DNA of 64,000 bases, from the NCBI GenBank assembly GCA_036733165.1, contig DAINBB010000003.1, forward strand, positions 7,546 to 71,545, in the 5' to 3' direction. The translations under genes and the position numbers were made by a program. This document shows positions 12,515 to 56,159 of the stretch, in pieces. Each line of letters begins with the position of its first letter. The stretch's first letter is position 1. Below the pieces are notes generated by a model. It saw only the letters and a program-made list of their open reading frames with translations, searched no databases and had not been told where the DNA came from. This DNA is from Halobacteria archaeon (GTDB lineage: Archaea > Methanobacteriota_B > Thermococci > Methanofastidiosales > NM3).

Positions 12515-12530
12515 CTTCCAACACCCGCTC

Positions 12531-13262: not shown

Positions 13263-13270
13263 GGGGACAC

Positions 13271-14041
13271 CTACTGTTTAATCTCCCTCCAGGAGAAATA
13301 TCTCTTCTCGATCAGCTTGAAGCTTCTGTCAATGAGCAGTCCGATTATGCCTATGTATATGATACCTGAGATGATTATGGAGATCTGCCCTACGGTATTG
13401 GCCTGCCAGATAAGGTACCCAAGCCCTGAAGGGGCTATCCCAGGCATCATCTCTGCGGCCACGAGGCACATCCATGCTATTCCCATGCCGATCCTGAGCC
13501 CAGTGACAATGTATGGCGAGGAATGCGGGATCACTATCTTCCTCATTATGTCATAGTCGCTTGCATCAAAGGTCTTTGCGACCTCGATGTGCGATTTGCT
13601 TATGCTCTTGACGCCCTCGATGGTATTGACCAGTATCGGGAAGAATGCGCCAAGGAATATTATCATCACGGCGGACCTGAGACCAAGACCCAACCATGCC
13701 ATTATGAGGGGTATCCAGGCAAGTGGTGGGATCGGCCTAAGCACCTCCACGATATAATCAAAGAGGTCCCCAAGGTACTTCGACCATCCCATCCCGACTC
13801 CGAGGGGGATGGCTATCAGGCATGCGAGTCCGAATCCCAGCACTACCCTCTTCAGCGAATAGTAGGTATTCTCTATCAAAGTGCCGGTTCCAAGAAGACT
13901 ATTGTTGGGATGGGTGACAATGGATAATATTTTTACAAGTTGAGGTAGTTTCCAAGGATTGTCGATAGACATCGCAATCAGTTCCCATCCTACCACTATA
14001 CAGATAGGCACTATCAGTTTAATGATCTTCCTGTTCATCAT
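13271..14041 (-). CDS. ABC transporter permease (TauC/SsuC-like, BPD inner-membrane component)
   Basis: Six predicted TM helices; conserved loop AAEMMPGIAPSGLGYLI. Operonic with the ATPase. Confidence 0.8.
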   Translation of the reverse strand: MMNRKIIKLIVPICIVVGWELIAMSIDNPWKLPQLVKILSIVTHPNNSLLGTGTLIENTYYSLKRVVLGFGLACLIAIPLGVGMGWSKYLGDLFDYIVEVLRPIPPLAWIPLIMAWLGLGLRSAVMIIFLGAFFPILVNTIEGVKSISKSHIEVAKTFDASDYDIMRKIVIPHSSPYIVTGLRIGMGIAWMCLVAAEMMPGIAPSGLGYLIWQANTVGQISIIISGIIYIGIIGLLIDRSFKLIEKRYFSWREIKQ

Positions 14042-14222
14042 AGCACCTTGACTATAGGATATATACTAAAATATATTATTATATAATATATTCTGGACCT
14101 TTCCCTGATAAAATCCATGACTACTTTCTGGCGTTTGTTTAAAAATCTTTCTTAAAATTATTTTATCTGTTTTAGGAATATTATTTACCCAAAAGTATAA
14201 ATAATTCTATTTTATACTACTT

Positions 14223-24091: not shown

Positions 24092-24166
24092 GCTCCGATA
24101 GTGTAGTCCGGTCAATCATCCAGCCCTCTCGAGGCTGAGACCCGGGTTCGAATCCCGGTCGGAGCA
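24092..24166 (+). tRNA. tRNA-Glu (anticodon CUC), no encoded CCA
   Basis: Cloverleaf by eye: acceptor GCUCCGA/UCGGAGC, anticodon stem CAGCC/GGCUG with loop CU-CUC-GA, T-arm CCGGGTTCGAATCCCGG. Close to the archaeal tRNA-Glu consensus. Confidence 0.85.
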
Positions 24167-33251: not shown

Positions 33252-34442
33252 ATGAACAAAATAGAGTTGAAGAACGGTATATACTGGGTCGGGGCTATAG
33301 ATTGGAATCTCCGCGATTTCCACGGATACAAAACGCCGAACGGGTCTACATATAATGCATATCTCGTAGTTGGCGAGAAGATTGCATTGATAGACACGGT
33401 GAAGAGACCTTTTCTGAACGACCTTGTTGAAAACATCAGGAACATAGTGGAACCTGAGAAGATCGATTATCTTATAGTAAACCATGTCGAGATGGACCAT
33501 TCAGGTTCATTCCCGGAGATCGTGAAACTGCTCAAGAACGCCCGCATTGTCGCCACCAAGGAGGGCAAGGAGGAACTTTTGAAGCACCACGGCAAGGATT
33601 ATGACATAACGGTCGTGGAGGACGGTGACACGATATCCCTGGGCAACAAGACCCTCAGATTCATAAAGACTCCGATGCTGCATTGGCCCGACTCGATGAT
33701 GACATATGTCCAGGAGGACAAGGTGATATTTACTTCGGACGCCTTTGGCCAACATTACGCCTCCACAGAAAGGTTCGACGACGAGCTTGACGAGAAGACG
33801 CTCTATGACGCGGCTGGGGAATACTATTCCAACATACTTTGGCTCTACAGCCCGCTTGTATCACGCCTGATCGAGAAGGTGATGGACATGGGCATCAAGC
33901 TGGAGATGGTGGCACCCGACCATGGCATAATATGGAGAAACGACCCGCATAAACCCATAAACTGGTATTGCGAGTGGGCAAATGGAAAGTCTGTGAACAA
34001 GGTGTTGCTGGTATATGAAACGATGTGGGGCTCCACGGAAAAGATGGCCAGGGCGATAGCCAAGGGAATAACAGACCAGGGAATGAACGTCAAGCTGATG
34101 AAGCTTAAGGAGACCGAATACAGCTACGTGATCAAGGAACTGCTCGGGTGCAGAGGCATACTTGTGGGCACACCTACCCTCAACAACAACATGTTCCCCT
34201 CCATGGGCGGTTTTCTGACATATCTTAAAGGGCTCAGGCCAAAGGGAAGGATAGGAGCGACCTTTGGTTCCTATGGCTGGGGCGGCGGTGCGTGCAAGGC
34301 CGCGGAGGAGATGCTGGACGAGGCGGGTGTCAGGATAGCGTTCCCGCCACTGGAGCTTAAATGGGTCCCTACGGCCGAAGAGCTCGAGGACTGTTACACC
34401 TTTGGAAAGGAGTTTGCATCTAAAGCTATGGAGAAGATATAG
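33252..34442 (+). CDS. fprA: Flavodiiron protein FprA (metallo-beta-lactamase-like diiron domain + flavodoxin domain)
   Basis: HVEMDHSGS (HxExDH) motif plus a C-terminal flavodoxin-like domain; 396 aa. Confidence 0.85.
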   Translation: MNKIELKNGIYWVGAIDWNLRDFHGYKTPNGSTYNAYLVVGEKIALIDTVKRPFLNDLVENIRNIVEPEKIDYLIVNHVEMDHSGSFPEIVKLLKNARIVATKEGKEELLKHHGKDYDITVVEDGDTISLGNKTLRFIKTPMLHWPDSMMTYVQEDKVIFTSDAFGQHYASTERFDDELDEKTLYDAAGEYYSNILWLYSPLVSRLIEKVMDMGIKLEMVAPDHGIIWRNDPHKPINWYCEWANGKSVNKVLLVYETMWGSTEKMARAIAKGITDQGMNVKLMKLKETEYSYVIKELLGCRGILVGTPTLNNNMFPSMGGFLTYLKGLRPKGRIGATFGSYGWGGGACKAAEEMLDEAGVRIAFPPLELKWVPTAEELEDCYTFGKEFASKAMEKI

Positions 34443-35342
34443 TTGGAGAAACAGGATCTTAAGAATGAGGCATGGAAGAAGGTCGGCACAAAGTTTGCAC
34501 ATATAACAAGTGTCCATCCATGCTACAATGAGGATGCGCATCACAAAAACGCCAGGATACACCTCCCAGTGGCCCCGAAATGCAACATCCAATGCAGATT
34601 CTGCAGCAGGGGTCTGGACAAGTGTGCCAATCGGCCTGGCGCCTATTCCCACCTATTGAGCCCCGAGGGGGCTGTGGAACGGGTCAGGGAGGCGAAGAAG
34701 AAGTATAGGACGCTCCGGGTGGTCGGAATAGCGGGCCCGGGCGAACCATTGTTCAACCTCGAGACGTTCGAGACATTGTCAATGGTTGACAAGGCGTTCC
34801 CGAAACTATACAAGTGCATAGCCACCAACGGCCTCCTATTGCCAAAGAAAGTGGACATCCTCAAGAGCAACAACGTCGGCAGCGTCACCGTGACGGTGAA
34901 CGGCCTGGACCCGGATGTCGTTTCACAGATAGTGTCATGGGTGGTGTACGAGGGCAAGCTGTACAAGGACGAAAGGGGCGCCGAGAAGCTGATAGAGAAT
35001 CAGCTTGAAGGGATCGAAAAGGCCGTTAATGCGGGAATGGTGGTGAAGGTCAACACGGTCCTCATACCTTCCATCAACATGGACGAGGTAGAGATGATAG
35101 CAAAGACCGCATCCGAGCTTGGCGCATGGATAATGAACATCATCCCACTGATACCGCTCAACGATTTCTCAGACATGGAACCGCCGGGTTGCGATGACCT
35201 CAAGAGGGCAAGGCAGATGGCCGAGAAGCATATAAATCAGTTCAGGCTCTGCAAACAGTGCAGGGCGGATTCCTGCGGCGTTCCGGGAAAAGAGGACCAT
35301 TCAATACCAAGGACCTGCGCATCAGAATATTTCCATGGGTGA
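34443..35342 (+). CDS. NifB-like radical SAM protein (minimal NifB, no NifX domain), apparent TTG start abutting the fprA stop
   Basis: HPCYNEDAHHKNARIHLPVAPKCNIQCRFCSRGLDKCANRPG is nearly the NifB signature (HPCY…AHH…ARMH…VAP.[21 protein letters not shown]). There is no in-frame ATG before this motif. Confidence 0.7.
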   Translation: MEKQDLKNEAWKKVGTKFAHITSVHPCYNEDAHHKNARIHLPVAPKCNIQCRFCSRGLDKCANRPGAYSHLLSPEGAVERVREAKKKYRTLRVVGIAGPGEPLFNLETFETLSMVDKAFPKLYKCIATNGLLLPKKVDILKSNNVGSVTVTVNGLDPDVVSQIVSWVVYEGKLYKDERGAEKLIENQLEGIEKAVNAGMVVKVNTVLIPSINMDEVEMIAKTASELGAWIMNIIPLIPLNDFSDMEPPGCDDLKRARQMAEKHINQFRLCKQCRADSCGVPGKEDHSIPRTCASEYFHG

Positions 35343-35348
35343 TCCGGC

Positions 35349-37685
35349 ATGGAAGGGAGGTTCCATCTCGAGGGAATACACTGTGCAGGGTGTGTGAAGA
35401 AGATAGAGGATGCACTAAGGTCCCTTGATGGCGTGAAAGATGTGGCCATCAACCTTGCATCCAATTCTGGAACAGTCGATTACGATGAATCCGTTGTAGA
35501 CGGCAGGACGATATCGGCGAAGATATCCTCTCTGGGTTACAAGGTGAAGCTCGAGAGCGTCGTGGTGGACATAGTGGGCATGCACTGCGCCAACTGCGCG
35601 CTCGGTCTTGAGAAGGCCCTGGGCGGCACCGACGGCGTATCCAGTGCAAATGTGAACTTCAACACTGGCAGGGCGTTTGTCACCTACGACCCCTTGGCGT
35701 TCGATGCGGGGCTTATCAACGATATAGTTGAGAAGAGGGGGTACAAGGTCGCCTCAAGGGAGAAGACCGACGAGAAGGAAAGCAATCCGTATCTGAGGAC
35801 GTTCATCTTTACCTTGCTGCTCGCAGTTCCTGTCATATTCATCACCCACTTCACCGAGTTTGACAACAGGCCCATCGTGCTTTTCCTTTTGACAACGCCG
35901 ATACAGTTTATCTCGGGCTTTACATTCTACAGAAGCGCCCTCTACTCTCTCAAGGGTGGTAGCGCCAACATGGATGTCCTCGTGATGCTTGGGACATCTG
36001 CGGCATACTTCTATTCGGTGGGGACGACGTTCTTCTTCGAAGGCCCACTGTTCTTTGAGACCACCGCAATGCTCCTTTCGTTCATACTGCTGGGAAAACT
36101 GCTTGAGACATACGCCAAGGGTAGAACCTCCCAGGCCCTAAAGAAGCTGATGGCACTGCAGGTCAAGTTCGCACTGGTCGAACGCGACGGAAGACAGATA
36201 GAGGTGCCCATAGACTTCGTGAAGGAGGGAGACATAACGATAGTGAGGCCAGGGGAACGCGTGCCCGTGGACGGCATCGTCACTGAAGGGTATTCGACGG
36301 TGGACGAGTCCATGATAACGGGCGAGTCGATACCCAGGGAGAAGGTCGGGGGCGATGATGTCATAGGGGGCACCATAAACGGCAATGGCCTTCTGAAGGT
36401 AAGGGCCACCAAGGTGGGGGCGGATGCCATGCTATCCCAGATAATATCGTTTGTCGAGAAGACCCAGGGCACCAAGCCGCCCATACAAAGGTTCGCCGAC
36501 AGGGTGTCATCCTATTTCGTCCCGGCGATCATCATCATCGGCCTGACCACCTTCGCATTGTGGTATCTCGTCCTTGACGAGACATTCGTCTTCTCGCTGA
36601 CCAGGATGATAGCCGTGCTTGTCGTGGCGTGCCCATGCGCGCTGGGCCTTGCGACACCCACGGCCATTGCGGTCGGCACGGGTGTGGGGGCGAACAACGG
36701 CATCCTGATAAAGAGCGGCGAGGCGCTTGAGAAGGTCCAGGACGTCGACACGGTAGTGTTCGACAAGACGGGGACCCTGACCAGGGGAACGCCGGAGGTC
36801 ACTGACTACACATCCATGGATGTGCTCAGGTACGCTGCCAGCATTGAAAAGGGGTCTACGCATCCCCTTGCCGAGGCCATCGCCTCAAAGGCGGAGCAAG
36901 AGGGCATAGAACTGGCCGGCGTTGAAAAGCTGAACACGATCCCTGGAAGGGGCATCGAGGCCGAGATGGGCGGCAAGAGGTACCTTTTAGGCAATTCATC
37001 ATTATTGAAGGACAATCATATCCCGTTCAGGGAGGAGGGGGCCATACTTCTTGAAAACAGGGGAAACACCGTTGTGCACCTGGCAAGGGAGGGCGAGTAT
37101 CTGGGACATGTGGCTTTGGCAGACACGGTAAAGGACAATGCGCCCCGGGCGGTTGCAGACCTTCGCAGGAGGGGCATATCCGTATGGATGATCACGGGGG
37201 ACAATGAGAACACGGCCAGGGCCATATCACATCAGCTTGGCATAGACAACTTCATGTCCAACATACTTCCAAAGGACAAGGCGCTCAAGATAAAGGAGCT
37301 TCAGGACGGCGGAAAGAAGGTCGCGATGGTCGGCGACGGCATCAACGACGCGCCCGCCCTGATACAGGCGGACGCGGGGATAGCCATCGGCTCCGGTTCC
37401 GAGATAGCCATAGAATCCGGAGAGATAATACTGGTCGGTGACGACATAGGCGATGTCAACGTCTCCTTGTCCCTGTCCAAGAGCATATATTCGAAGATAA
37501 TGCAGAACATGTTCTGGGCGCTGTTCTACAATTCCCTGATGATCCCCATCGCCGCAGGGCTACTGTCGGGTCATGGCATAAACATGAGGCCCGAGCTGGC
37601 GGCGCTCGCCATGTCAATGTCCTCCGTGTCTGTGGTTTCCAACTCCCTTTTGTTAAGAAGATTTAAAATGAAGGATTCAGATTAG
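35349..37685 (+). CDS. copA: Cu+-translocating P1B-type ATPase CopA with two N-terminal HMA domains
   Basis: GIHCAGC and GMHCANC metal-binding sites; CPC, DKTGTLT, HP and [10 protein letters not shown] motifs. Confidence 0.9.
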
Positions 37686-37705
37686 TGTGTTGGAGGTAGG
37701 AACAA

Positions 37706-38200
37706 ATGAGCAACCCCCTTGATCTGGCCATAAAGACCGAAAAGGACGGTATAGCGTTCTATAAGAAAGAAGCCGAAAAGAGTGGCGATGAAATGGGAAG
37801 GAAGATGTTCCTTTCATTCGTTGAGGATGAGAAGCGGCACCTTGAGATACTTCAAAAGATGTCATGCAAGGAACATGTCTGCATATCCGACATTGAGAAC
37901 TACAGTCCGAAAAAGAACCTCAAGACCATATTCTCTGAGATGAAGGAAGAGGAAAGGAAGGGTTCCATCGACACCTCGACGGACATTGGGGCGCTTGAGT
38001 TGGCCATGGAGATGGAAAGGATGGGCTATGACCAATACATGGAGGCAGCGAAGATGGAAAAGGACGAGGAACACAAGAGGATATACATGAAGCTTGCCCA
38101 GGAGGAGAAGGAGCACTTTGACCTTCTGCAGGAGGCAAGGAGCTATCTTGAAGACACAGGGAACTGGTACATGTGGTACGAGCACAAGTTCCCGACATAG
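37706..38200 (+). CDS. Ferritin-like diiron protein (rubrerythrin family, no rubredoxin domain)
   Basis: Two ExxH motifs (EDEKRH, EEKEH) in a four-helix pattern; RBS GGAGGT upstream. Confidence 0.6.
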   Translation: MSNPLDLAIKTEKDGIAFYKKEAEKSGDEMGRKMFLSFVEDEKRHLEILQKMSCKEHVCISDIENYSPKKNLKTIFSEMKEEERKGSIDTSTDIGALELAMEMERMGYDQYMEAAKMEKDEEHKRIYMKLAQEEKEHFDLLQEARSYLEDTGNWYMWYEHKFPT

Positions 38201-38319
38201 GAGATGAGATTATGTACGATGATGACGAAATGGAGACGTTGTTCTGCTTCGAGCCTTCGAAGCATGTTGGAAAGAGCAATGGCAGGGTACTTTACTTTCT
38301 ATACAACAAATATATGTAG

Positions 38320-38808
38320 GTGCTATGGGTGACATATACTGTTAAGGACATACTCAACATTGCCGTAAGGTCCGAAGAGGAGGCGGAACTGTACTATTCC
38401 CGCCTGGGCGACAAGACCGAAAATGTATTTTTTAAAGAAAAGTTACGGCAGCTATCGGCAGAGGAGAAGGGACACAAGGCCGTGATACTCTCATTGATGG
38501 GTGAACAAGGCGTGAATGTTGCCATAAGTGAGGAGAAGGCCGTATCCCTGGAGCTGCCTTCCCTGACGTTCGACGACTCAAAGCCCATGTCCTTGCTCAT
38601 AGAGGCGGCCATGGATGCAGAGAATGCGGCAAGGGTCTTTTACAAGACATTGTCGGAGAGTGTCGAGGAAGGACGCGAACGTGCGATGTTGGAGTACCTT
38701 GCATCGTTTGAAGCGTCCCATTATCACATGCTGGAGGCCGAGATGGCGGCCATCAAGCATTTCGAGGACTACGATGAGTTCAACGAGATGATGCATGTGG
38801 GGCCCTAA
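38320..38808 (+). CDS. Ferritin-like diiron protein, paralog of the upstream gene
   Basis: EEKGHKAV and EASHYHMLE ExxH motifs; GTG start (alternative GTG at 38329). Confidence 0.55.
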   Translation: MLWVTYTVKDILNIAVRSEEEAELYYSRLGDKTENVFFKEKLRQLSAEEKGHKAVILSLMGEQGVNVAISEEKAVSLELPSLTFDDSKPMSLLIEAAMDAENAARVFYKTLSESVEEGRERAMLEYLASFEASHYHMLEAEMAAIKHFEDYDEFNEMMHVGP

Positions 38809-39667: not shown

Positions 39668-40180
39668 TTATCTTTTGCGTTCGATGCGCATGCCCTCGTA
39701 GAACGGCATGAAGTACAGGGTGGCAACGCCTATGATCAGAAGTATCTGCATGTTCGTCTGCCCCTCACCCATGAAGTATATGTCATAGAGGCCGAACCGT
39801 GACAACAGTCCGAACGTGATGATTATCGCTGCCAGATAGAGCATTGGGGGAACGTATTTCCTGTTCCTTCTCAACCTGAGCCATGGTAGCCCCATACCCC
39901 TTGCCTTGTTGAGAGTGTGTTCGAGTGCGACCAGCATTGGCAGCAATATGGCAATGGTGAACGACAGCGTGGACGTATCGAACGCGTTCTTGAAATGAAA
40001 GAGATGGGAGAGGATCATTGCGTCCGAGAACGCTATCAGGAGCAGACCTCTTTCGTTCCACCTGTATGTTAGGGCGATGGACAGGATGGCCAGCAATGAA
40101 AGCATGACAAGATACTGCCACGCCACTCCGGAGTAAATGCCTATTGCGAGGGAGTAGAATGAGAACAGAATTGCCATCAT
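39668..40180 (-). CDS. Polytopic membrane protein, terminal gene of the MoxR operon
   Basis: 170 aa, about 5 TM helices; 4-nt overlap with the DUF58 gene. Confidence 0.45.
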   Translation of the reverse strand: MMAILFSFYSLAIGIYSGVAWQYLVMLSLLAILSIALTYRWNERGLLLIAFSDAMILSHLFHFKNAFDTSTLSFTIAILLPMLVALEHTLNKARGMGLPWLRLRRNRKYVPPMLYLAAIIITFGLLSRFGLYDIYFMGEGQTNMQILLIIGVATLYFMPFYEGMRIERKR

Positions 40181-41592
40181 GACAGTTCACCCTTTATCTT
40201 TGGATATATGATACTAAGTGTGTCTTCGGGCGTCTCTTCGATTATCCTGACCCCGACGTTCCTCATCGTGGACATGTTCCTCCTCTTTGTCAGATAGTTC
40301 TTGTAGAGCCCTTCGGCAGTCTTTATGTCCATTGAGGAGATATCCATGTCGTACCATGGGGAATATGGCGTGATGAGAAGGACCTCCCCACCCCTGGAGC
40401 TTATCATCTTGATGGTGTCAATCAATGCCTTCGAGTTCGATTCAAGGTCCGAGATCACCAGCATCAGGCTCTTTTCGTACTTCTCCCCCATCGCCATGAC
40501 GGTACTGTACAGTCCCGATACGCCCATGATGGACTTGACGGCCCTTCTGCTGCCTGAGAGGTATGGCAGGACCTTTCCTAGGAATTCCTTCGATTCCTCA
40601 TCAAGCGCGTCCTGCTCATATCTGGGGTCGAGAGGATATGTCGCCCTGTACGTGTCAGGCAGCCTCTCGAGCGAGGAGAGGATCGTGCTGTACTGTCCCC
40701 TGTTGAAGAAGGCCGGCACGTTCTCGACCACAGTGTGCTCATCGAAGGCTATGAATCCTGTAGGATTCTCATGTTCAAGGAATATCTTCGTCAATTGCAT
40801 TGTGAGAAGTATGGAATGATTGAACTTGGACCTGTCACCATATGTTGCCCTCATAGACCTGGAGACGTCAAGCAGGACGTATATGCTGCCATACCCCTCC
40901 GCTTCTGAGAGCTTTGTGAGCAGTTTCTGGAGCCTTGACGAGGCCTTCCAGTCTATGTCGGATATCCTGTCCCCAGGTTGGTACTCACGTATCCCTGCAA
41001 AGTCCATCCCTGTGGTGAGCACAGTTTCCTCCTCGACCAGCTCCTCCCTTGAAGAACCTTTTGCAATGTAATCGGCCCTCTTGATCCTGTCTCTGGAATC
41101 CTGGTATGTTATCTCGTTGCGGAGGTCGTACCCCCTCTGGAACATGAACAGCCCCCGCTTGTCAACTACATTGGTCTCAATGGCCTCGAAGACGGCCGTT
41201 CCCCTGCTTTCCCTCACAAGGTCATACGAGTACTCTATTCCCCTCAGGGAGCTGACGACATCGGTATGGACGTTGCTCCCCTCCAGCACGAACGAGTCCT
41301 TCGGGATCCTATCCTTGATCTCGAGGAAGACCTCGTCCGTGAACGGATAGGAGTAACTGACGCTGACCCTTACGGGTTCCTTAGCGAAATAGGTCTTCTT
41401 TTGGATGTTCCTTTGTATGTTCACGTCTTGACTGTCCACGGCGGCGGCGAACGATGATCTGCAGAAGAGGATGTATGAAAGTACGCCGATGCCAAGCAGG
41501 GAGGGAAGGACATTTCCAGAGAGATAGCTCTGCAAGAAGAGCACGAAGATCAGTGCGAACAATATCCTTGCGTCCCTACTAAGTTCCATCAA
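40177..41592 (-). CDS. DUF58-domain protein (vWA-like partner of MoxR) with N-terminal TM helices
   Basis: DWKASSRLQKLLTKL…IYVLLDVSRSMRA is the DUF58 core. Confidence 0.7.
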   Translation of the reverse strand: MMELSRDARILFALIFVLFLQSYLSGNVLPSLLGIGVLSYILFCRSSFAAAVDSQDVNIQRNIQKKTYFAKEPVRVSVSYSYPFTDEVFLEIKDRIPKDSFVLEGSNVHTDVVSSLRGIEYSYDLVRESRGTAVFEAIETNVVDKRGLFMFQRGYDLRNEITYQDSRDRIKRADYIAKGSSREELVEEETVLTTGMDFAGIREYQPGDRISDIDWKASSRLQKLLTKLSEAEGYGSIYVLLDVSRSMRATYGDRSKFNHSILLTMQLTKIFLEHENPTGFIAFDEHTVVENVPAFFNRGQYSTILSSLERLPDTYRATYPLDPRYEQDALDEESKEFLGKVLPYLSGSRRAVKSIMGVSGLYSTVMAMGEKYEKSLMLVISDLESNSKALIDTIKMISSRGGEVLLITPYSPWYDMDISSMDIKTAEGLYKNYLTKRRNMSTMRNVGVRIIEETPEDTLSIIYPKIKGELS

Positions 41593-41597
41593 TTACA

Positions 41598-43013
41598 CTA
41601 CCTTTTCTCCAACGGTACTTTGATGTTCTCCAAAATATTGTTGATTACCCCCCCTATCGAACCCTCCTCGGGGTCCAGGTCGGGGGATGGCAGCAGTCTG
41701 TGGTTCAAGGTGTCATACACAACGTCCTTCACGTCATCGGGTATGATGTAGTCCCTCCCCCTTATGCAGGCCTTTGCCCTTGCGGCGTACAATAGCTGTT
41801 CCGAGGCCCTCGGGGAGGCGCCGATGGTGATCAGTCGGCTGTTCCTTGTGGAGGCTATGATCTCGTTGATGTACTCTATGATGCTTTCATCGACAAACAC
41901 GTTGTCATAGGCCTCTTCCAATCTCTCGAGGTCGAAGACCTTTGGGGGAGCATGACTGGTCCGTTTCCCGTTTGCCTTCATCCTCAGGAGCTCTAGCTCC
42001 CTTTCCTTTGATATATAGCCCATGTTTACCTTTAGCATGAATCTGTCTGCCTGGGCCATGGGCAACTGGTACACTCCGTCGTGTTCGATTGGATTGATCG
42101 TGGCGATCACCATGAAGGGTTGGGGCAGCACGAAGGTCTTGCCCTCTATCGTGACCTGTTTCTCCTCCATGGACTCCAAGAGTGCGGACTGGGTCTTTGG
42201 CGTAGTACGATTTATCTCGTCGGCCAAGAGCAGATTGGAGAAGATGGGTCCCTTCCTCAGCTCGAACTCATGGGCCATCTGGTTGTAGAAGAAGTGACCG
42301 GTAATGTCCTGCGGCAGCATGTCTGGCGTGAACTGTATCCTCTGGCATTCCATTCCCAATGTCGATGTGAATGTCTTGGCGAGGGTCGTCTTCGCGATTC
42401 CTGGAACGCCTTCGAGGAGGACATGCCCCCTTGCCAGAAGGGCTATCAGCAAGTTCTCGACAATATCGTCATAGCCGATGACGACACGGCTGATCTCCCG
42501 CTTGAACTCCTGGACCATGTCCAGGATATCTTTGTTCAGGCAGCCTTCCGCCGGCATGTCGCCAAATATGCTGTCTCTGACGACGTTAATTGGGGATACT
42601 TCATCGTTCACGGCCTGGGGGGGAATCTGCTCATCCTCGAACATGTTCTCGATGATCTCGCCTTTCTCAGCGACGACGGGGGATACGTCGGCCGGTGGCT
42701 CGCCCTCCTCATACAGGTCCTCGGGCGCTTCAAACGTTTCCACGCGTTCGTTGGGTGGCATCTGTTCTTCGATGGCCATGTCATCTTCGGCTGCCTGATC
42801 CTCGTAGACCGTTGTTTTTTCATGCTCGGACGCTTCCTCTGCCGCGATGGGCTCTTCGGGCGTCTTTGCGTCTTCTTCCCTGTCCTCCGTCATTGCCGCC
42901 GTTTCGTCGATATTGATGTTTTCCAAGTCCTTGAGGGTCTCTTCCATATCCTTGTATATCTGGGCGATGGTGTCCTTGACCTCCTCATGGGACAGTTTTT
43001 TCGTTTCTTCCAT
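41598..43013 (-). CDS. MoxR-family AAA+ ATPase with an approximately 150-aa acidic low-complexity N-terminal extension
   Basis: LLEGVPGIAKTTLAK Walker A; QFTPDMLPQDITG typical of MoxR. The N-terminus is E/D-rich. Confidence 0.85.
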   Translation of the reverse strand: MEETKKLSHEEVKDTIAQIYKDMEETLKDLENINIDETAAMTEDREEDAKTPEEPIAAEEASEHEKTTVYEDQAAEDDMAIEEQMPPNERVETFEAPEDLYEEGEPPADVSPVVAEKGEIIENMFEDEQIPPQAVNDEVSPINVVRDSIFGDMPAEGCLNKDILDMVQEFKREISRVVIGYDDIVENLLIALLARGHVLLEGVPGIAKTTLAKTFTSTLGMECQRIQFTPDMLPQDITGHFFYNQMAHEFELRKGPIFSNLLLADEINRTTPKTQSALLESMEEKQVTIEGKTFVLPQPFMVIATINPIEHDGVYQLPMAQADRFMLKVNMGYISKERELELLRMKANGKRTSHAPPKVFDLERLEEAYDNVFVDESIIEYINEIIASTRNSRLITIGASPRASEQLLYAARAKACIRGRDYIIPDDVKDVVYDTLNHRLLPSPDLDPEEGSIGGVINNILENIKVPLEKR

Positions 43014-43022
43014 ATAATCCCC

Positions 43023-44120
43023 CTACCTGAACTTTGAAAAAAATGAATTGAGACCTGAAGCCTGCCATTCCGGATGCATCTTCTTAAGCGAATCTATCAA
43101 TTCCTTCCTATCCGTACTTCTTAAAGATGTTTCCTTACCGAATTTAAACTTATTTATAATATGTCTTGAGACCGAACCGACATACGATAACAGATTGCCC
43201 TCTATCACGAGCACGATCAAGAGGAATGATATGATGATGTATCTGAAGAGGGGATTGTTAGGCATGGTGAGCACCACGTTGAACCTCTCTATGTCCTCCA
43301 AGGTGCCAAGATGCGCCTCGTCTATGTATACCGTCTTTGAGTAGTTGTCCGTGATATCCTCCATCATATGATGTAAAAATGCCATGTTGTCCATCTTGCC
43401 GATCATGTTGTTTATGAGGATGCTGGGGTCGGAGATCATGTACACGATCCCGTCCCCTATCTCCACGCTCGCCACGACCGTAAAGGGCCCGCTGATATCG
43501 CCTTTGCCATAGGAACCGTCCTCATCTATGTCCAGGAATGCCATGCTTGTGGTCTCGAATATCGGTATCACGTCCCCTTCTATGGTGGAAGGGTAGTTGA
43601 GGAGCAGGCTGTACTCAGAGAGCTCGCCTCCCTTGTAGGCTATGGGGAATGCACCCGCCTTTTCGAAGACGGTGTCCAGCATCGGCAGATTGCTGAATCT
43701 TGCCTCGAGCCCTATCCCTTCAAGTACTTCGTTCCCCGTGCCGAAATCGTCGGCTATGAGCAGTGTGCCGCCACCCTCGACAAATTGCCTCAAGAACGCT
43801 TTTTCGTCCCCCGAGTAGCTTGCCCTTGGCCCTATTATGACCACTACGGAGTCATTGTAATCTCCCTCCAGGGTCTCTGACAGGTCTCCGAAGAACGCGT
43901 TGAGGTACCTTTCCTCGTTCATCTCAAGGTCTATGGCACTGACGTTCTCCATATAATCCCTATAGAATCCCGAGGTCCCGTTCCAGCCATTGTTAAAGAC
44001 ACTGAAGTCCGAGGACCTTGAGAGGTAGGGCACCACCAACGGGACGAATATGAACACTATGACTATGATAAAGATAAGAAGATAGACGTAGAACTTCTTC
44101 ATTCCTGGCGAAAACATCAT
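43023..44120 (-). CDS. DUF4350-like membrane-anchored protein
   Basis: N-terminal and C-terminal TM helices, extracytoplasmic middle; gene-context match to MoxR/DUF58 operons. Confidence 0.5.
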   Translation of the reverse strand: MMFSPGMKKFYVYLLIFIIVIVFIFVPLVVPYLSRSSDFSVFNNGWNGTSGFYRDYMENVSAIDLEMNEERYLNAFFGDLSETLEGDYNDSVVVIIGPRASYSGDEKAFLRQFVEGGGTLLIADDFGTGNEVLEGIGLEARFSNLPMLDTVFEKAGAFPIAYKGGELSEYSLLLNYPSTIEGDVIPIFETTSMAFLDIDEDGSYGKGDISGPFTVVASVEIGDGIVYMISDPSILINNMIGKMDNMAFLHHMMEDITDNYSKTVYIDEAHLGTLEDIERFNVVLTMPNNPLFRYIIISFLLIVLVIEGNLLSYVGSVSRHIINKFKFGKETSLRSTDRKELIDSLKKMHPEWQASGLNSFFSKFR

Positions 44121-45775
44121 CTCCCACCACCTATCCTTCCGACAACGTGTCTGACAGACCTGAAGAACGAGCTTTTCCTGTCTTTTCCTATGTCCCTCCC
44201 GGAGTACCTTGCCAGTTCGAAGGTGGCGGTTATGTCCCTGACCTCGTTGGCCGAATCCGAGATCGTTCTCAGTTCCCTGTCTATGTCCGTATGGGTCGTC
44301 GACGGGTGCAGATGCACGACCCTGCGGACCGCAAGGAACTCTATCATCCTGGAATAGGCGAGTATCACGGATTCCTTGACATTTCCTATCTTCTCAAGAA
44401 TGCCCAGTTCAATCAGGAACGTTTCCCTGCGTCCAATATCCTCCATCCCTTCCGTTTCTGGGGACGAGGATTGCATATCTTTTCTCGCATGGCCATCTCT
44501 CCAGTGCACGAGAAGGGCGATAACAAGGCCCGACACCACCGTAATTGCCAACAGCATCTCATATATGTTATTGGAACCTTGCCCTGCCTCTGTTACATGG
44601 GTGCTGAACTCAAGGGCCTGCGACCTGCTTTGAACGAACGGGGCACCTTCCTCAGGGACAAACTCTGCGTACACAACATAGTCAGCATCGTCGATGCCCT
44701 GAACAGTATGTTCGAATAGGCCGTCTTCCCCGGTGACGATGTGGGTCGCCTCCCCGTTTATGTTCAATAAGACGTTCCTGTCTTCCAATCCGTGCCCATA
44801 GATGTCATCAAGCCTGCCTGTAAATAATATGGAATAATCGTTTCCTGCCGGCCCCTGTCCCCTCGACAGTGATATCGTTGTAGGTATTTCGACATACACC
44901 TCAATCTCGTCCGACAGTATTGTCTCATATTGATATGTGGTCTGGGCCATTATGTTAATATGGTCGAAGTCGGCATTGACGGGAAGGTCGTAAAGATAGC
45001 TGAAATGTCCATCCTCGTCAGTTTCAAGCGTTATGGCCGATCCGTTGATGACCAACCCTATGTCGTGAAGTCCCACGGGCAGACCTTCAAAATAGAGATG
45101 TCCATCGACGATAAGCCTGTAGTTCTCGCTAGACCCTGTGTCATATGCGCTGATAAACAGGCCGTTGCCCTGGTACCCATTGTTCTCCATGAGTGCGTCT
45201 ATGGAATCCCTGTAGGTATCGAGGGTGCCCCTGAGCAGCGATATGGAGGCTGCCACGTTCCCCGTCTCATAACCTAATCCTAAAAGGCCGGATGCCGCCT
45301 CCTCGAGATTGTCAAGTCTTGACTCTATCTGGGCGAGCATGTTATCGGCAATTATTATGTGTGATCCGATGTCCGGTCCATCCCCCATCGTCTCAAGGCC
45401 CTCCAGGAGCGTTTTCAATTCTGGCTGGATATTGATGATGCCGTACAGCTGTTCATAAATCGCTTGGAATGACCGATAGTAGAGTGGGAGAAGCTGTTCT
45501 TCAAGTTCCTTGGTGTCCAGCTCTAGCACTATTTCCCCCGGGACCGCAAGGTCGTTTGAAAGTGTTCCTATCCCTTCCATGGCACCCTGGAAGTTCTCTT
45601 GGGAAAGGTGGAAGACCGCATCGGATATGATAGTCACATCGCCCATGAAGTATGAATGCAGGACCTCTGGGTCCTCCATGGCCTCGTTTATGTTCTGGTG
45701 AGAAGGCGAACCCGCCAAGGGGCATGAGGACATTAGCACTATGGCCAACGCGATGGCCAAATGATATTTTCTCAT
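44117..45775 (-). CDS. Secreted/membrane protein with C-terminal DUF4129-like cytoplasmic domain
   Basis: Signal peptide; CarboxypepD_reg-like beta-sandwich segment; TM helix near residue 420; C-terminal …TFELARYSGRDI… resembles the DUF4129 motif. Confidence 0.5.
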   Translation of the reverse strand: MRKYHLAIALAIVLMSSCPLAGSPSHQNINEAMEDPEVLHSYFMGDVTIISDAVFHLSQENFQGAMEGIGTLSNDLAVPGEIVLELDTKELEEQLLPLYYRSFQAIYEQLYGIINIQPELKTLLEGLETMGDGPDIGSHIIIADNMLAQIESRLDNLEEAASGLLGLGYETGNVAASISLLRGTLDTYRDSIDALMENNGYQGNGLFISAYDTGSSENYRLIVDGHLYFEGLPVGLHDIGLVINGSAITLETDEDGHFSYLYDLPVNADFDHINIMAQTTYQYETILSDEIEVYVEIPTTISLSRGQGPAGNDYSILFTGRLDDIYGHGLEDRNVLLNINGEATHIVTGEDGLFEHTVQGIDDADYVVYAEFVPEEGAPFVQSRSQALEFSTHVTEAGQGSNNIYEMLLAITVVSGLVIALLVHWRDGHARKDMQSSSPETEGMEDIGRRETFLIELGILEKIGNVKESVILAYSRMIEFLAVRRVVHLHPSTTHTDIDRELRTISDSANEVRDITATFELARYSGRDIGKDRKSSFFRSVRHVVGRIGGGR

Positions 45776-45907
45776 CGCAATTTTGCTATATTTAAATGTT
45801 AATATATTTTTCCTATTCGGTCCATATAATAAGATAGGAAAATTGCATATTTGAACATGTTAATAACTAGAATAATGTGTTACAATATATGATATTTTCA
45901 TTGAATG

Positions 45908-45951
45908 GTGTTATTAATGATAACAACTTTTTTAAAATGATGTTATTAGTG
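45908..45951. promoter_or_regulatory. Direct repeat TGTTATTA(A/G)TG twice, 30 bp apart, in the AT-rich promoter region of the ABC importer operon
   Basis: gtgttattaatga at 45908-45920 and gatgttattagtg at 45938-45951. Confidence 0.3.
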
Positions 45952-45967
45952 CAGTGTTGGTGTAATA

Positions 45968-47287
45968 ATGGCAAATGACACTAAGAAGATTGGAGCTGTA
46001 GCATTGACCGCTATAGTGATCATAGCTGCTATTTTCATATTTTACGACAGAGGCCCCGACCAGGACCTCACAGAGGCCTTGGGAGAGAACACCGAGTTCT
46101 CCGACCTCTTTGACGCTTTGGAGTCAACAGGAATCCTTGAGGGCCTTGCCGGAAGCGAATACACGATACTGGCCCCCACTGACGGCGCCTTCGACGACTA
46201 CGATACAGAGCTTTATGGCGACCTTCTGGAGGACACCGACTCCCTTGGGGCATTGTTGAACTATCACATCATAGAAGGCAAGTACTCTGTGGCAGATATA
46301 TCGAAGATGTCTACCGTAACGACACTGCAGGGAGAGGTTATCTCGATATCCACGACCGGCAATGTGACGGTTAACGATGTTGAGATATCCCAGAGCGAGG
46401 AGATAGAGTGCGAGAACGGATATATCATCCCCGTGGGCGAGATACTCCTGCCACCAACCATCGAGAGTACCTACATCGACCTGACGATCACGGATGCTGC
46501 TGGAAGGGAGGTATACATCAAGAAGGTCCCTGAAAGGATAGTATCGATTGCGAGTTCCGCCACGGAGACGCTGTATGCGATCAATGCGGGGGACCTCCTG
46601 GTCGGAAGGGACAAGTACAGTGTCTATCCTGAGGAGGCCAACGATCTTCCAGATCTCGGCAGCGGTTCATCCCTCGCCCTTGAGGAGACATTGAACCTGA
46701 ATCCGGACCTTGTGATCACGTGGTACTACAGCACCTCGGCGATAGAGAGCCTTGAACAGAACGGAATAACCGTCCTTGCCATAGGGCCGTCATCGGTTCA
46801 GGACGTACTGGACCTTATCACGTTGTTTGGTCAGATATGCGACCACGAAGCCGATGCCCAGGCCATAGTCCAAGATATGCAGACGACCATCGATGAGATC
46901 TCATCATATGCGGAATCCTTGTCCGAAGATGAGAAGGTCAAGGTGTTCTACGAGCTGTCAACCGCCTTCAAGAGCGTGAGCGACCAGACGTTCACAGGGG
47001 AGCTTATAGAGCTTGCGGGGGGCATAAACATCGCGGCGGACCAGGAGGCGACATATCCGCAGATGTCCAGCGAATGGATAATAGACCAAAATCCCGATGT
47101 TGTTGTCGTTGTCTCATACGGCGCCACAACGGACGAGATCAAGTCAAGGGACGGTTGGGACTCCATCGATGCAGTTTTAAATGACAAAGTGTATTCTATT
47201 GAGAGCAACTGGGTCAGTTCTACCCCTAGAATGGTATTGGGGCTTGAACAGTTCGCCAAGTGGTTCTACCCTGAACACTTTGCGTGA
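45968..47287 (+). CDS. Siderophore/cobalamin-type (BtuF/FepB-like) ABC substrate-binding protein with an N-terminal fasciclin (FAS1) domain
   Basis: FAS1 motifs YTILAPTDGAFDD, LLNYHIIEG and NGYIIPVGEILLPP. Then BtuF-like IVSIASSATETLYAINAGDLLVGRDKYS…NPDLVITWYY. N-terminal TM anchor. Confidence 0.75.
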   Translation: MANDTKKIGAVALTAIVIIAAIFIFYDRGPDQDLTEALGENTEFSDLFDALESTGILEGLAGSEYTILAPTDGAFDDYDTELYGDLLEDTDSLGALLNYHIIEGKYSVADISKMSTVTTLQGEVISISTTGNVTVNDVEISQSEEIECENGYIIPVGEILLPPTIESTYIDLTITDAAGREVYIKKVPERIVSIASSATETLYAINAGDLLVGRDKYSVYPEEANDLPDLGSGSSLALEETLNLNPDLVITWYYSTSAIESLEQNGITVLAIGPSSVQDVLDLITLFGQICDHEADAQAIVQDMQTTIDEISSYAESLSEDEKVKVFYELSTAFKSVSDQTFTGELIELAGGINIAADQEATYPQMSSEWIIDQNPDVVVVVSYGATTDEIKSRDGWDSIDAVLNDKVYSIESNWVSSTPRMVLGLEQFAKWFYPEHFA

Positions 47288-48345
47288 ATCAAATGCATAA
47301 CATCGACGGATACTACCAAGACATAAAGCACAAGAGGTTTATGCTTCTCATAGGCCTCTTGATTATTCTTTTTTTCGTCACCGTTCTTGGGATAATGGTG
47401 GGTCCGGTTTTCATAAGCCCCAAGGTGGTGCTCAAGATACTGGCCTCCAATCTGCCCCTGATAGGCGACGACATCGTTCAGACATGGCCTGGAACGTACA
47501 ACAGCATAGTGATGGACGTCAGGCTTCCACGGGTGTTGGTCGGTCTGATGGTGGGTGCAGGCCTGTCGGTTGCCGGCTGCGGCATGCAGGGGCTTTTCAG
47601 GAACCCAATGGCATCTCCGTACGTCACGGGCATATCATCCGGCGGCGCCTTCGGTGCAGCCCTTGCGGTGAATCTCGGCATAATATATTATCTTGTTCCG
47701 GCATTCGCGTTCTTTTTCTCTGCCATGACGGTGTTCTTGGTCTATGCAATCTCCATGGTGCGCGGAAAGGTCAGGATGGAGACCTTGCTCCTTTCGGGAA
47801 TAGCTGTGGCATCCTTCTTCTCGGCCCTCGTCTCCCTGATGATGTACCTGGCCGCGCAGAAGCTTGAGAGCATCGTCTTCTGGATGATGGGGGGATTCTG
47901 GGCGTCGGGCTGGGACGAGGTGATGATCATCCTGCCGTTCGTCATAGTATGCATCCCGATATACATCTTTCTTTCAAGGGACCTAAATGCGATGATGCTT
48001 GGGGAGGATGCCGCAAGGGACCTTGGCATAGATGTGGAGACGACTAAGAAGATAGTCCTCGTGCTCACAGCGATCCTTGTCGGATGCTGTGTTGCAGTTT
48101 CGGGGACCATTGGTTTCGTGGGCCTTATAATCCCCCACATCACCAGGATAATCGTGGGCCCGGACCACAGGGTCCTCATCCCCGCCTCTGTGTTCACAGG
48201 AGGCATATTCATGATATTCACGGACATTGTGGCACGAATGATAATACAGCCATCGGAGCTCCCTGTCGGCATCATAACGTCCTTGTGCGGAGTGCCCTTC
48301 TTCCTATATCTACTTAGGAGGAGAAAGTCTTCAATGGGGTGGTAG
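47284..48345 (+). CDS. FecCD/BtuC-family ABC permease
   Basis: 353 aa polytopic; typical FecCD glycine-rich TM pattern; ATGA overlap with the SBP gene. Confidence 0.8.
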   Translation: MNQMHNIDGYYQDIKHKRFMLLIGLLIILFFVTVLGIMVGPVFISPKVVLKILASNLPLIGDDIVQTWPGTYNSIVMDVRLPRVLVGLMVGAGLSVAGCGMQGLFRNPMASPYVTGISSGGAFGAALAVNLGIIYYLVPAFAFFFSAMTVFLVYAISMVRGKVRMETLLLSGIAVASFFSALVSLMMYLAAQKLESIVFWMMGGFWASGWDEVMIILPFVIVCIPIYIFLSRDLNAMMLGEDAARDLGIDVETTKKIVLVLTAILVGCCVAVSGTIGFVGLIIPHITRIIVGPDHRVLIPASVFTGGIFMIFTDIVARMIIQPSELPVGIITSLCGVPFFLYLLRRRKSSMGW

Positions 48346-48346
48346 G

Positions 48347-49129
48347 GTGGACCTGAACGTGGAATCTCTTTATTTCGGATACTTCAAGAAGAACATTCTC
48401 AAGGATGTCAGCTTCACTGCCAAGAGCGGGGAGGTCATGGGAATAGTCGGACCCAATGGTTCCGGAAAGACCACACTTCTCAAGTGCATCAGGAAGGCGC
48501 TCACCCCAAGGCAAGGGAGTATAATGCTGGACGGCGAGGACATAATGGAATGGGATAGGACGAAGATAGCCAAGTACTTTGGCGTCGTTCCCCAAAACAC
48601 GAACATTACATTTCCCTTCACCGTTCTCGAGATAGTCATGATGGGGAGGATACCCCACCTGAAGAGGATGCAGGGGGAGGGTGAGGACGATGTCTATGTG
48701 GCCAAGAAGGCCATGTCCCTGACAGCCATTGAACATCTCTACTACCGTTACGTCAACAATCTTTCAGGAGGCGAGGTGCAAAGGGTCATCATTGCCAGGG
48801 CTCTTGCCCAGGAACCCAAGATACTCCTGCTCGACGAACCGACATCGAACCTGGACATAAATCACCAGTTCGAGACCATGAAGCTTATCAGAAAACTTGC
48901 AAAGGATGAGGACATGATAGTTGTCATCATATCCCATGACCTCAACCTTTCGATGAGATATTGCGACAATCTAATCCTTCTGCACGACGGCGAGGTATTC
49001 TCGAGCGGCAGGCCCGTCGATGTGCTGACGAAGGAAAACATAAGAAAGGTCTACGGCGTCGAGGCCCAGATAGACTTCAACACCGCAATAGACTCAAATC
49101 AGATAACGCTGATAGATATTGTGGAATGA
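48347..49129 (+). CDS. ABC ATP-binding protein (FecE/BtuD-like), GTG start
   Basis: GPNGSGKTT, LSGGEVQRVIIARAL, LLLDEPTSNLD. Confidence 0.8.
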   Translation: MDLNVESLYFGYFKKNILKDVSFTAKSGEVMGIVGPNGSGKTTLLKCIRKALTPRQGSIMLDGEDIMEWDRTKIAKYFGVVPQNTNITFPFTVLEIVMMGRIPHLKRMQGEGEDDVYVAKKAMSLTAIEHLYYRYVNNLSGGEVQRVIIARALAQEPKILLLDEPTSNLDINHQFETMKLIRKLAKDEDMIVVIISHDLNLSMRYCDNLILLHDGEVFSSGRPVDVLTKENIRKVYGVEAQIDFNTAIDSNQITLIDIVE

Positions 49130-55910: not shown

Positions 55911-56159
55911 TTTTGCTTTTTTCTTCAATTGAATTTTAGTATTTACAATGTAGTAATTGCATTATTTCCTTATTTTTTTTATTTTACAGTAAAACCACTG
56001 CAAAAAGTATTTAAAGGAAAAGTTACATTAAATGCCTATATAGCTATACGGAGTGTTGGAGCGTGAACATGTTCGAAAAAGTAATCCAATTAGTTAATGG
56101 TATATTTACACACGATTCTGATACAGATTTTGTCAATGATAAGTATGGTTGGAGGTTTA

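Follow-up and report, generated by a model that had tools for sequence, protein, structure and literature searches.

Archaeal gene clusters encoding a MoxR-type AAA+ ATPase together with immunoglobulin (Ig)-domain membrane proteins were described by Makarova, Galperin and Koonin in 2015 as a predicted secretion or membrane-remodelling complex, for which a tentative model was presented (arCOG01314 module, PMC5898192). In that work, arCOG01314, which is defined on Thermococcus and Pyrococcus proteins, was equated with DUF4350, and its partners comprised MoxR (COG0714), a protein combining Ig and vWA domains, membrane proteins with Ig domains (among them pfam07760) and further small ones with either two to three or five transmembrane (TM) segments (PMC5898192, section 3.2, Table 2). 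Here, a five-gene operon (g1 to g5, minus strand, positions 39668-45775) is compared with this module. It is located on a stretch of 64,000 nucleotides, referred to as the window, of contig DAINBB010000003.1 (assembly GCA_036733165.1, positions 7,546 to 71,545), deposited for a Halobacteria archaeon and placed by GTDB within the Methanofastidiosales. The operon represents the Methanofastidiosa version of a known, published and experimentally uncharacterised module, and the novelty reported here is modest: a MoxR whose long acidic N-terminal tail carries a conserved helix at its tip, and a reduced set of genes. No description of either feature was found in the open-access literature.

Related gene arrangements are known from bacteria. 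In the actinobacterial MoxR-DUF58-transglutaminase clusters (Bifidobacterium PFNA operon, mycobacterial moxR1 operon, Esr), a MoxR of the MRP type adjoins DUF58 and is accompanied by an Ig/FN3-repeat surface protein (PMC8430577, PMC12067865, PMC13622651). In contrast, the archaeal operon and its neighbours encode no Ser/Thr kinase, FHA protein, transglutaminase or beta-propeller. Bacterial DUF4129 domains are commonly annotated on transglutaminase-family proteins, whereas the DUF4129 domain studied here is fused to an Ig-type ectodomain. Furthermore, a MoxR-DUF58 pair heads membrane-protein operons in the Bacteroides Bat and Borrelia BB0172-BB0176 systems, as it does here (PMC5700661). In Bat operons, this pair is followed by genes for TPR proteins and the vWA membrane proteins BatA/BatB, neither of which is present in the archaeal operon, and DUF4350 and DUF4129 are not included. 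An assignment to the Bat aerotolerance operon was rejected, the genes downstream of the MoxR-DUF58 pair being g5, which belongs to no family, and a PfkB kinase gene. Likewise, an assignment to the MoxR-vWA ternary conflict systems or Esr was dismissed, as Pfam searches of the operon and ten neighbours revealed no VMAP, beta-propeller, iSTAND or effector.

The operon consists of five tandem open reading frames (ORFs) encoding proteins of 552, 365, 471, 471 and 170 aa, separated, in the order g1 to g5, by junctions of -4, +9, +5 (+8 if the ATG of g4 is used) and -4 nt; g4 thus starts 5 nt after the MoxR gene g3, and the start of g5 overlaps the DUF58 stop by 4 nt. A purine-rich Shine-Dalgarno-like element was read ahead of every internal start. 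Families were assigned by the Pfam curated cut-offs, and NCBIfam models were scanned in addition. DUF4129 (PF13559) was identified in g1 with 31.1 bits (cut-off 24.8, residues 473-532), DUF4350 (PF14258) in g2 with 52.3 bits (cut-off 30.4, residues 42-252), AAA_3 and AAA_lid_2 in g3 with 200.9 and 62.4 bits (cut-offs 27 and 22.7), and DUF58 (PF01882) in g4 with 49.1 bits (cut-off 23.4). No family match in Pfam or NCBIfam was obtained for g5, in which hydropathy analysis indicates five to six hydrophobic segments. A preceding interpretation of the same DNA, termed the sequence-only reading in the following, had proposed these four family assignments, a membrane protein as the fifth product, and five co-directional genes with 4-nt overlaps or gaps of at most 10 nt; the assignments all exceed the curated cut-offs, the hydrophobic segments of g5 bear out its membrane nature, and the gaps amount to 5-9 nt.

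Homologues of g2 were found in Thermococcus with E-values of 1e-24 to 1e-26, and the DUF4129 match recurs in three of four g1 orthologs; a score of 25.0 bits was obtained for the T. litoralis ortholog. In T. litoralis, Methanoregula and Thermoplasmata, the core order is a Big_3_5/DUF4129 protein of 602-709 aa, followed by DUF4350, MoxR, DUF58 and a membrane protein of 155-168 aa. Based on the Thermococcus homology of g2, this shared core order and the Pfam matches, the cluster in the window is assigned to the pan-archaeal arCOG01314 module, of which it represents the Methanofastidiosa version. Like the published complex, which comprises DUF4350 with an extracellular flavodoxin-like domain, MoxR, an Ig and vWA (DUF58) protein, an Ig membrane protein and a 5-TM protein (PMC5898192), the operon combines DUF4350, MoxR and vWA in one predicted transcription unit with an Ig ectodomain and g5, the probable counterpart of the '5 TM' arCOGs tabulated in 2015.

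In total, 80 loci (L011-L090), all of archaeal origin, were retrieved by a pattern scan of GTDB species genomes. They span Thermoplasmata, Thermococci, Methanomicrobiales, Archaeoglobi, Bathyarchaeia, Korarchaeia and Nitrososphaerota. Subsequently, 6411 ORFs from 91 sequences (90 loci and the window) were searched with purpose-built iterated hidden Markov models (HMMs). A locus was considered well flanked if 6 kb or more was available to either side, as was the case for 24. The sequence-only reading had called the operon family widespread but functionally unassigned; the survey upholds the former, while the latter requires qualification, given the prediction and model of 2015 (PMC5898192). The gene order g1 to g5 was found again in four close relatives, whose g1 proteins are only 39-43% identical, and the core in most of the 80 loci, showing that the five-gene arrangement is not due to chance. 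The wider flanks of the operon are kept in the same four relatives but not in other archaeal classes, and the flanking genes were therefore not counted as part of the system.

The usual neighbours of the module are missing beside it in this clade. Among the 24 well-flanked loci, g1 was present in 24, DUF7982 in 24, DUF8044 in 22, DUF1616 (pfam07760/arCOG02884) in 20, and MoxR and DUF58 in 19 each; DUF1616 is a neighbour in 50 of all 80 loci. The three additional families adjoin the module in T. litoralis, Methanoregula and a Thermoplasmata contig, and DUF7982 and DUF8044 are divergent neighbours in two relatives with a shorter MoxR tail (L009 and L010). In contrast, neither DUF7982 nor DUF8044 nor DUF1616 was detected in the 64-kb window by tblastn and iterated HMMs. 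The Methanofastidiosa operon is a compact five-gene form of the module. As a separate observation, DUF7982 is linked to DUF4350 and the Ig/DUF4129 protein more tightly (24/24) than MoxR/DUF58 is (19/24). Moreover, the flanks retrieved for one Thermoplasmata subgroup contain neither MoxR nor DUF58, and in L008, a related contig outside the 80-locus survey, these two genes lie approximately 3 kb away. Matches of 720-760 aa to the MoxR model in some Thermoplasmata loci were discarded as irrelevant Cdc48/VCP-type double-AAA proteins.

The second distinguishing feature concerns the ATPase. The core of g3 is most closely related to the solved structure 2R44 (E=1.7e-75 by sequence), and its superposition gave a TM-score of 0.84, normalised to the target, at 40% identity. 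Across an alignment of 37 MoxRs, Walker A (GVPGIAKT, K208/T209), Walker B (LLLADE, D265/E266) and the residues N307, R324 and R402 (sensor 1, arginine finger, sensor 2) do not vary. Accordingly complete in its motifs, g3 is a full MoxR and is predicted to be ATPase-competent. Ahead of this core lies the polyacidic N-tail noted by the sequence-only reading, which was confirmed: residues 1-165 contain 32% Asp/Glu, 7% Lys/Arg and 12 Pro, and the AlphaFold2 confidence (predicted local distance difference test, pLDDT) is below 50 at residues 42-156, as expected for disorder. It reaches 93-95 at residues 11-30 and mostly exceeds 90 in the core. The confident segment corresponds to an N-terminal helix with hydrophobic positions 12, 16, 19/20, 23, 27 and 30, i.e., at a spacing of three to four residues, and a hydrophobic moment of 0.56, a value reached by 4 of 2000 shuffled sequences.

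Among the 120 best homologues listed for g3, the nearest fourteen are long proteins (five of 448-480 aa, eight of 392-417 aa and one of 524 aa), and nearly all of the remaining ones comprise approximately 300-340 aa. Together with g3 and the MoxR of locus L003, these fourteen represent sixteen tail-bearing MoxRs, the more distant of which are also encoded in operons of the same type. All sixteen start with the helix motif [ED][IV]xxx[IL]xxI[YQ]x[ED]M[EQ]xT[LI]. Their tails measure 86-216 residues, mostly accounted for by the linker past the helix, and stay acidic (20-33% Asp/Glu, net charge -9 to -58) while their sequence varies freely; the first 31 residues are conserved, and the linker varies in length and sequence. 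For 18 operon MoxRs matching the motif search, 106-202 residues precede the conserved 'GY' inside the clade, as opposed to 21-37 outside. By these alignments, the N-tail is a real and lineage-restricted feature, and it sets the window MoxR, with its 165-aa extension of N-helix and acidic disordered region, apart from the arCOG01314 MoxRs of other classes. The conserved helix, the helix and disorder predicted by AlphaFold2, the amphipathicity and a GGGGGA Shine-Dalgarno-like element located 5 nt upstream of the g3 ATG, which itself lies 9 nt past the g2 stop, suggest that the tail is translated and functional.

In the public annotation, an orthologous MoxR is recorded with 324 aa from an internal start (L002 10794-12278; GCA_016930445.1, JAFGGT010000025.1). 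A 494-aa form including the N-helix was called on an independent assembly of apparently the same sequence. Since the first 31 residues are conserved, the long form is taken as genuine, and the 324-aa record likely represents a start-codon mis-annotation by which a 170-residue tail was dropped.

The DUF58 protein g4 begins with a hydrophobic hairpin (aa 10-26 and 29-46, hydropathy) followed by a vWA-like DUF58 domain, which carries an intact DxSxS motif (DVSRS) and an 'ISD' strand; a GDxxxxIDWK signature is kept in aligned orthologs. For g5, a phmmer search against 1.84 billion representative proteins returned 18 matches, of which the credible ones comprise approximately 165 aa. When compared by hhalign with the proteins at the equivalent position in T. 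litoralis and Methanoregula, g5 showed weak similarity (15.6% probability). An iterated HMM of g5 recovered this link and matched 21 of the 6411 ORFs, every one of them directly downstream of DUF58 on the same strand, with the 4-nt overlap in 18 of the 21. Because all matches follow DUF58 and most share the same overlap, g5 is identified, from gene order and sequence, as a conserved and putatively translationally coupled DUF58 partner in loci from several archaeal classes. The conserved tail helix, the g5-DUF58 coupling and the missing DUF7982/DUF8044/DUF1616 neighbours are additional to what had been claimed for this DNA before.

The membrane protein g1 was modelled by AlphaFold2 from four input sequences with a mean pLDDT of 69; in the folded domains, most ten-residue blocks reach 74-94, with some lower stretches inside. 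Its best Foldseek matches in the PDB, from intimin D0-D1, adhesin extender regions and PECAM, are tandem Ig-like domains of a generic kind. Along its full length, g1 is homologous to the 709-aa Big_3_5/DUF4129 protein of L008 (tblastn E=1e-12). The sequence-only reading had assigned to g1 an elaborated secreted N-terminal domain of approximately 400 aa with a CarboxypepD_reg-like beta-sandwich. Such a domain is present, but it is no elaboration: because an Ig-like/DUF4129 protein of approximately 560-730 aa is encoded directly upstream of DUF4350 in 72 of the 80 archaeal loci, and in all 24 fully flanked ones, the large ectodomain is the standard archaeal architecture. The CarboxypepD_reg assignment had to be given up, since no match at E<=1 was obtained in g1 or three orthologs; the sole beta-sandwich HMM match in g1 is Big_1 with E=0.12, which is also weak across the orthologs (best E 7e-4, in one of them), and the Foldseek result is generically Ig-like.

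In the DUF4350 protein g2, an N-terminal TM segment (aa 12-30) and a second one (aa 294-312) flank the extracellular domain according to hydropathy, followed by a basic cytoplasmic tail of approximately 50 aa with the conserved helix RKELIDSLKKMHPEW (tail alignment). Sub-threshold matches to ABC_transp_aux (E=6e-5), TIGR03521 (GldG, E=0.009) and IFT52_GIFT were recorded, and the g2 family profile matches the IFT52 GIFT structure 5fmr with E=0.0016. The DUF4350 domain opens with a near-invariant NxGWNGTS motif, the WNGTS region of which is encoded at 43975-43989 (g2 residues 44-48). It contains an N-G-T sequon in most orthologs; T. litoralis has NGAS instead. The motif may be structural or may serve as a glycosylation site. 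Coordinates of all features are compiled below.

Features of the five-gene operon and its upstream region (window positions; domain limits and topology are predictions)
Feature	Residues	Position	Strand	Basis or remark
g1 DUF4129 protein		44117-45775	minus	552 aa
g1 predicted signal peptide	1-23	45707-45775	minus	hydropathy (signal-like N-terminal segment)
g1 predicted extracellular helical bundle	36-199	45179-45670	minus	AlphaFold2
g1 two predicted Ig-like beta-sandwiches	205-391	44603-45163	minus	AlphaFold2 (205-294, 296-391)
g1 predicted TM helix	404-427	44495-44566	minus	hydropathy and AlphaFold2
g1 predicted cytoplasmic five-helix domain containing DUF4129	442-547	44135-44452	minus	AlphaFold2 and Pfam
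g2 DUF4350 protein		43023-44120	minus	365 aa
g2 GldG/IFT52-GIFT-like alpha/beta domain, predicted extracellular	42-252		minus	Pfam
g3 MoxR AAA+ ATPase		41598-43013	minus	471 aa
g3 conserved amphipathic N-helix	9-40	42894-42989	minus	AlphaFold2 and 16-sequence alignment
g3 acidic linker, predicted disordered	41-160	42534-42893	minus	AlphaFold2 and composition
g3 canonical MoxR core	161-471	41598-42533	minus	Pfam and AlphaFold2; stop codon included
g4 DUF58 protein		40177-41592	minus	471 aa; start TTG, or ATG 3 nt downstream
g5 small polytopic membrane protein		39668-40180	minus	170 aa
Intergenic region upstream of g1		45776..45967	minus	AT-rich, 192 nt; candidate promoter

A layout of the module can be proposed from hydropathy and sequence-derived flanking charges, together with the g1 model by AlphaFold2 and its Foldseek matches. 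The helical bundle and the two Ig domains of g1 as well as the GldG/GIFT-like domain of g2 would lie outside the cell, as sequence and models indicate. The membrane would hold one TM of g1, two of g2, the g4 hairpin and the five to six TMs of g5. The cytoplasmic side would comprise the helical DUF4129 domain of g1 and the basic g2 tail, together with the MoxR ATPase and the vWA-like domain of DUF58. To our knowledge, the MoxR proteins that have been characterised all share a compartment with the vWA protein they work with, and for this reason DUF58 is placed in the cytoplasm; its two-segment hairpin and the need to meet MoxR would make it a cytoplasmic domain on a TM hairpin. Established MoxR-vWA pairs include RavA-ViaA, CbbQ-CbbO, NorQ-NorD and BchI-BchD (reviewed in PMC7159879). 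In this scheme, a MoxR hexamer would partner with DUF58 as a vWA-type adaptor, and ATP would be spent to assemble the cytoplasmic ends of g1 and g2 or to switch their conformation, thereby controlling the extracellular scaffold. The proposed machine would thus represent a surface assembly or remodelling chaperone and not a protein-conducting channel. That MoxR/DUF58 remodels the cytoplasmic ends of g1/g2, so assembling or switching an envelope scaffold, is considered somewhat more probable than its negation. That the operon broadly represents a chaperone-like system connected with the cell surface, as the sequence-only reading had advanced, is supported by the present analysis and also corresponds to a published prediction (PMC5898192).

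Several points weigh against this proposal. The 2015 model places the vWA protein outside the cell, as 'likely secreted' (PMC5898192), and thereby differs from the cytoplasmic placement of DUF58 adopted here. The vWA models score below threshold in g4 (VWA_2 18.8 bits, VWA_CoxE 16.2 bits), and the serines of the motif resembling a metal ion-dependent adhesion site (MIDAS) vary among its orthologs (DASRT, DASSS, DCAPP, DSTRE, DCGRS); due to this variation, metal-dependent ligand capture would not be general for DUF58. In addition, 5 of the 24 well-flanked loci lack MoxR and DUF58 in the 6 kb around DUF4350, from which it follows that the role of the ectodomain proteins may not strictly require the ATPase in cis, and DUF7982 is, unlike them, present in every one of these loci. 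Finally, no experimental study of any member of the archaeal module was found in the open-access literature, and its function is deduced from context and topology alone.

Other functions have to be weighed against the chaperone proposal. The bitopic layout of g1, with an ectodomain, one TM and a cytoplasmic helical domain, resembles that of a receptor. In an outside-in sensor, the Ig/GIFT-like ectodomains would detect a cue such as a ligand, envelope damage, a virus or an epibiont, and MoxR-vWA, which has been described as a thresholding switch (Kaur et al., PMC7159879), would give a thresholded cytoplasmic response, comparable to the MoxR-vWA ternary conflict systems and the actinobacterial Esr pathway. 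Moreover, according to a 2026 preprint, experimental evidence connects the activation of Esx secretion with an Ig-repeat sensor at the surface, and the signal is proposed to be relayed via the MoxR and vWA proteins of that cluster (PMC13622651). The model bpMoxR, representing MoxR-vWA-beta-propeller systems, matches g3 with 43.2 bits (cut-off 27), but AAA_3 scores far higher on the same residues. Sensing is nevertheless regarded as unlikely: no gene for an output component (kinase, FHA protein, toxin, nuclease, protease, transcription factor) is present in the operon or among its conserved neighbours, none of the five operon proteins matches PADLOC, no diversifying or hypervariable element was seen, and the wide, stable conservation of the module is housekeeping-like, unlike that of patchy, fast-evolving conflict systems. 

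A true protein secretion system, in which a membrane conduit would be powered by MoxR for the export of large surface proteins, is the published prediction for the module, by analogy with the GldG link to the gliding/type IX apparatus (PMC5898192, section 3.2). Most components are indeed membrane or extracellular proteins, a 2144-aa multi-CarboxypepD_reg surface protein is encoded 10 kb away in the window, and g2 resembles GldG, with both supporting matches below threshold; GldG, however, is an accessory subunit of an ABC transporter and does not itself represent the type IX translocon. The operon encodes no channel-like protein, the 170-aa g5 being its sole polytopic product, no candidate cargo gene is conserved beside the module, and MoxR-class AAA+ proteins are established as remodelling chaperones and are not known as membrane polypeptide translocases (PMC3893208). 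Export is accordingly given a low probability. Still further down ranks a cofactor- or metal-insertion chaperone, with MoxR/vWA maturing a metalloenzyme or respiratory complex (compare CoxD/CoxE, NorQ/NorD, RavA/ViaA) and the membrane proteins serving as anchors. For this idea, MoxR-vWA precedents in metal-centre maturation and respiratory-complex assembly (PMC7159879; PMC3893208), the weak VWA_CoxE similarity of g4 (16.2 bits) and a nearby Cu-type P-type ATPase, rubrerythrins and a flavodiiron protein can be cited. These metal-related neighbours are, however, kept among close relatives only and not across classes, the MIDAS motif is variable, the conserved partners are extracellular Ig-like and GIFT-like proteins instead of enzymes, and no target metalloenzyme is encoded in or beside the module in any class; a role of this kind is highly improbable.

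Within the proposed surface chaperone, each MoxR subunit of this lineage would carry an amphipathic helix on an acidic disordered tether of approximately 120 residues. A related arrangement is known from BchD/ChlD and midasin/Rea1, in which an AAA+ module, an acidic linker and a vWA/MIDAS domain are found on the chain. The likeness lies in an acidic, Pro-containing disordered segment on a MoxR-related AAA+ protein working with vWA. Unlike in BchD and midasin, where it connects AAA+ with vWA, the acidic segment is N-terminal here, the tail is tipped by a conserved helix, and the vWA domain resides on a separate, membrane-anchored polypeptide. Identification of g3 as an Mg-chelatase D subunit was rejected, TIGR02031 scoring 46.7 bits (cut-off 499.55) and the vWA domain being encoded by a separate gene. 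The linker resemblance therefore represents a functional analogy, suggesting a tethering role, and not homology.

We infer that the N-helix acts as a tethered docking or autoregulatory element, with DUF58, DUF4129 or the basic g2 tail as the predicted partner, or with gating of the ATPase as its task. When g2 tails and g4 proteins were compared between tailed and untailed clades, no feature discriminating a lineage-specific partner of the MoxR helix was found; for g2, the comparison is not discriminating because its C-terminal helix also occurs in untailed clades. A more specific version, in which the helix serves as a docking arm for DUF58 or the basic ends of g1/g2, recreates the arrangement of AAA+, acidic linker and vWA non-covalently and could compensate for the missing DUF7982/DUF8044/DUF1616, is speculative and carries little weight. 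If it held true, the reach of a cytoplasm-to-surface remodelling machine, as well as its stoichiometry, would be governed by the six flexible arms of each hexamer, and the lineage would offer a minimal five-protein version suited to reconstitution.

The module belongs to the more widely conserved archaeal membrane gene sets without an experimental function, its prediction dating from 2015. The locus described here leaves the overall picture unchanged and adds a compact form, the coupling of g5 to DUF58 and a tailed ATPase, in which the helix on its acidic tether offers a concrete handle for finding what MoxR touches. If worked out, the mechanism would bear on how archaea couple cytoplasmic ATP to the S-layer/glycan surface. 

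Gene neighbourhoods give weak hints at a glycosylated surface. In T. litoralis (L005, CP006670.1), a 765-aa STT3/AglB-like protein (STT3-PglB_core 25.1 bits, cut-off 23) is encoded at 11799-14096, 74 nt after the module, with GT2 glycosyltransferases further on. Sugar-nucleotide enzymes flank the module in L009 and L010, and a DUF1616 protein of Haloferax is an AglB-dependent N-glycoprotein (PMC8241124). No AglB-like gene was found in the 64-kb window by tblastn or HMM. As a further observation, an AglB-like fragment adjoins the module in L055 and L090.

Concerning the genomic setting, a protein with 100% identity to g1 is annotated in a metagenome-assembled genome of a Candidatus Methanofastidiosa archaeon. 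The 192-nt spacer upstream of g1 is shared with a divergent Fasciclin/Peripla_BP_2 ABC-transporter operon. Two TATA-like boxes were read within it, AAATATAT at 45802-45809 and TTTAAATA at 45789-45796, and by the archaeal TATA consensus the spacer is likely the promoter region. A scan for sigma-70 promoters and terminators relied on bacterial models and is uninformative for an archaeon. Downstream of g5, 26 nt are followed by a PfkB kinase gene and then by genes for rubrerythrins and a P-type metal ATPase.

Further features of the window were recorded apart from the operon. The substrate-binding protein of the divergent FecCD/ABC transporter (45968-49129, plus strand) carries a Fasciclin domain fused N-terminally to Peripla_BP_2, and this transporter is syntenic in four relatives. 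A 318-aa ORF on the plus strand at 42081-43037, opposite the sequence that encodes the acidic tail and the core of MoxR, probably does not represent a gene but an artefact mirroring the GAA/GAG-rich codons. Rfam and tRNA scans of the window detected tRNA-Glu at 24092 only, which is unrelated to the operon. An oxygen/metal-stress cluster at 33252-38808 encodes a flavodiiron protein, a radical SAM protein, an HMA-domain P-type ATPase and two rubrerythrins, with synteny limited to close relatives. Finally, the giant surface or adhesin-like protein of 2144 aa (56097-62531, plus strand), situated approximately 10 kb from the operon, contains at least 11 CarboxypepD_reg repeats together with SdrD_B and SpaA-like domains.

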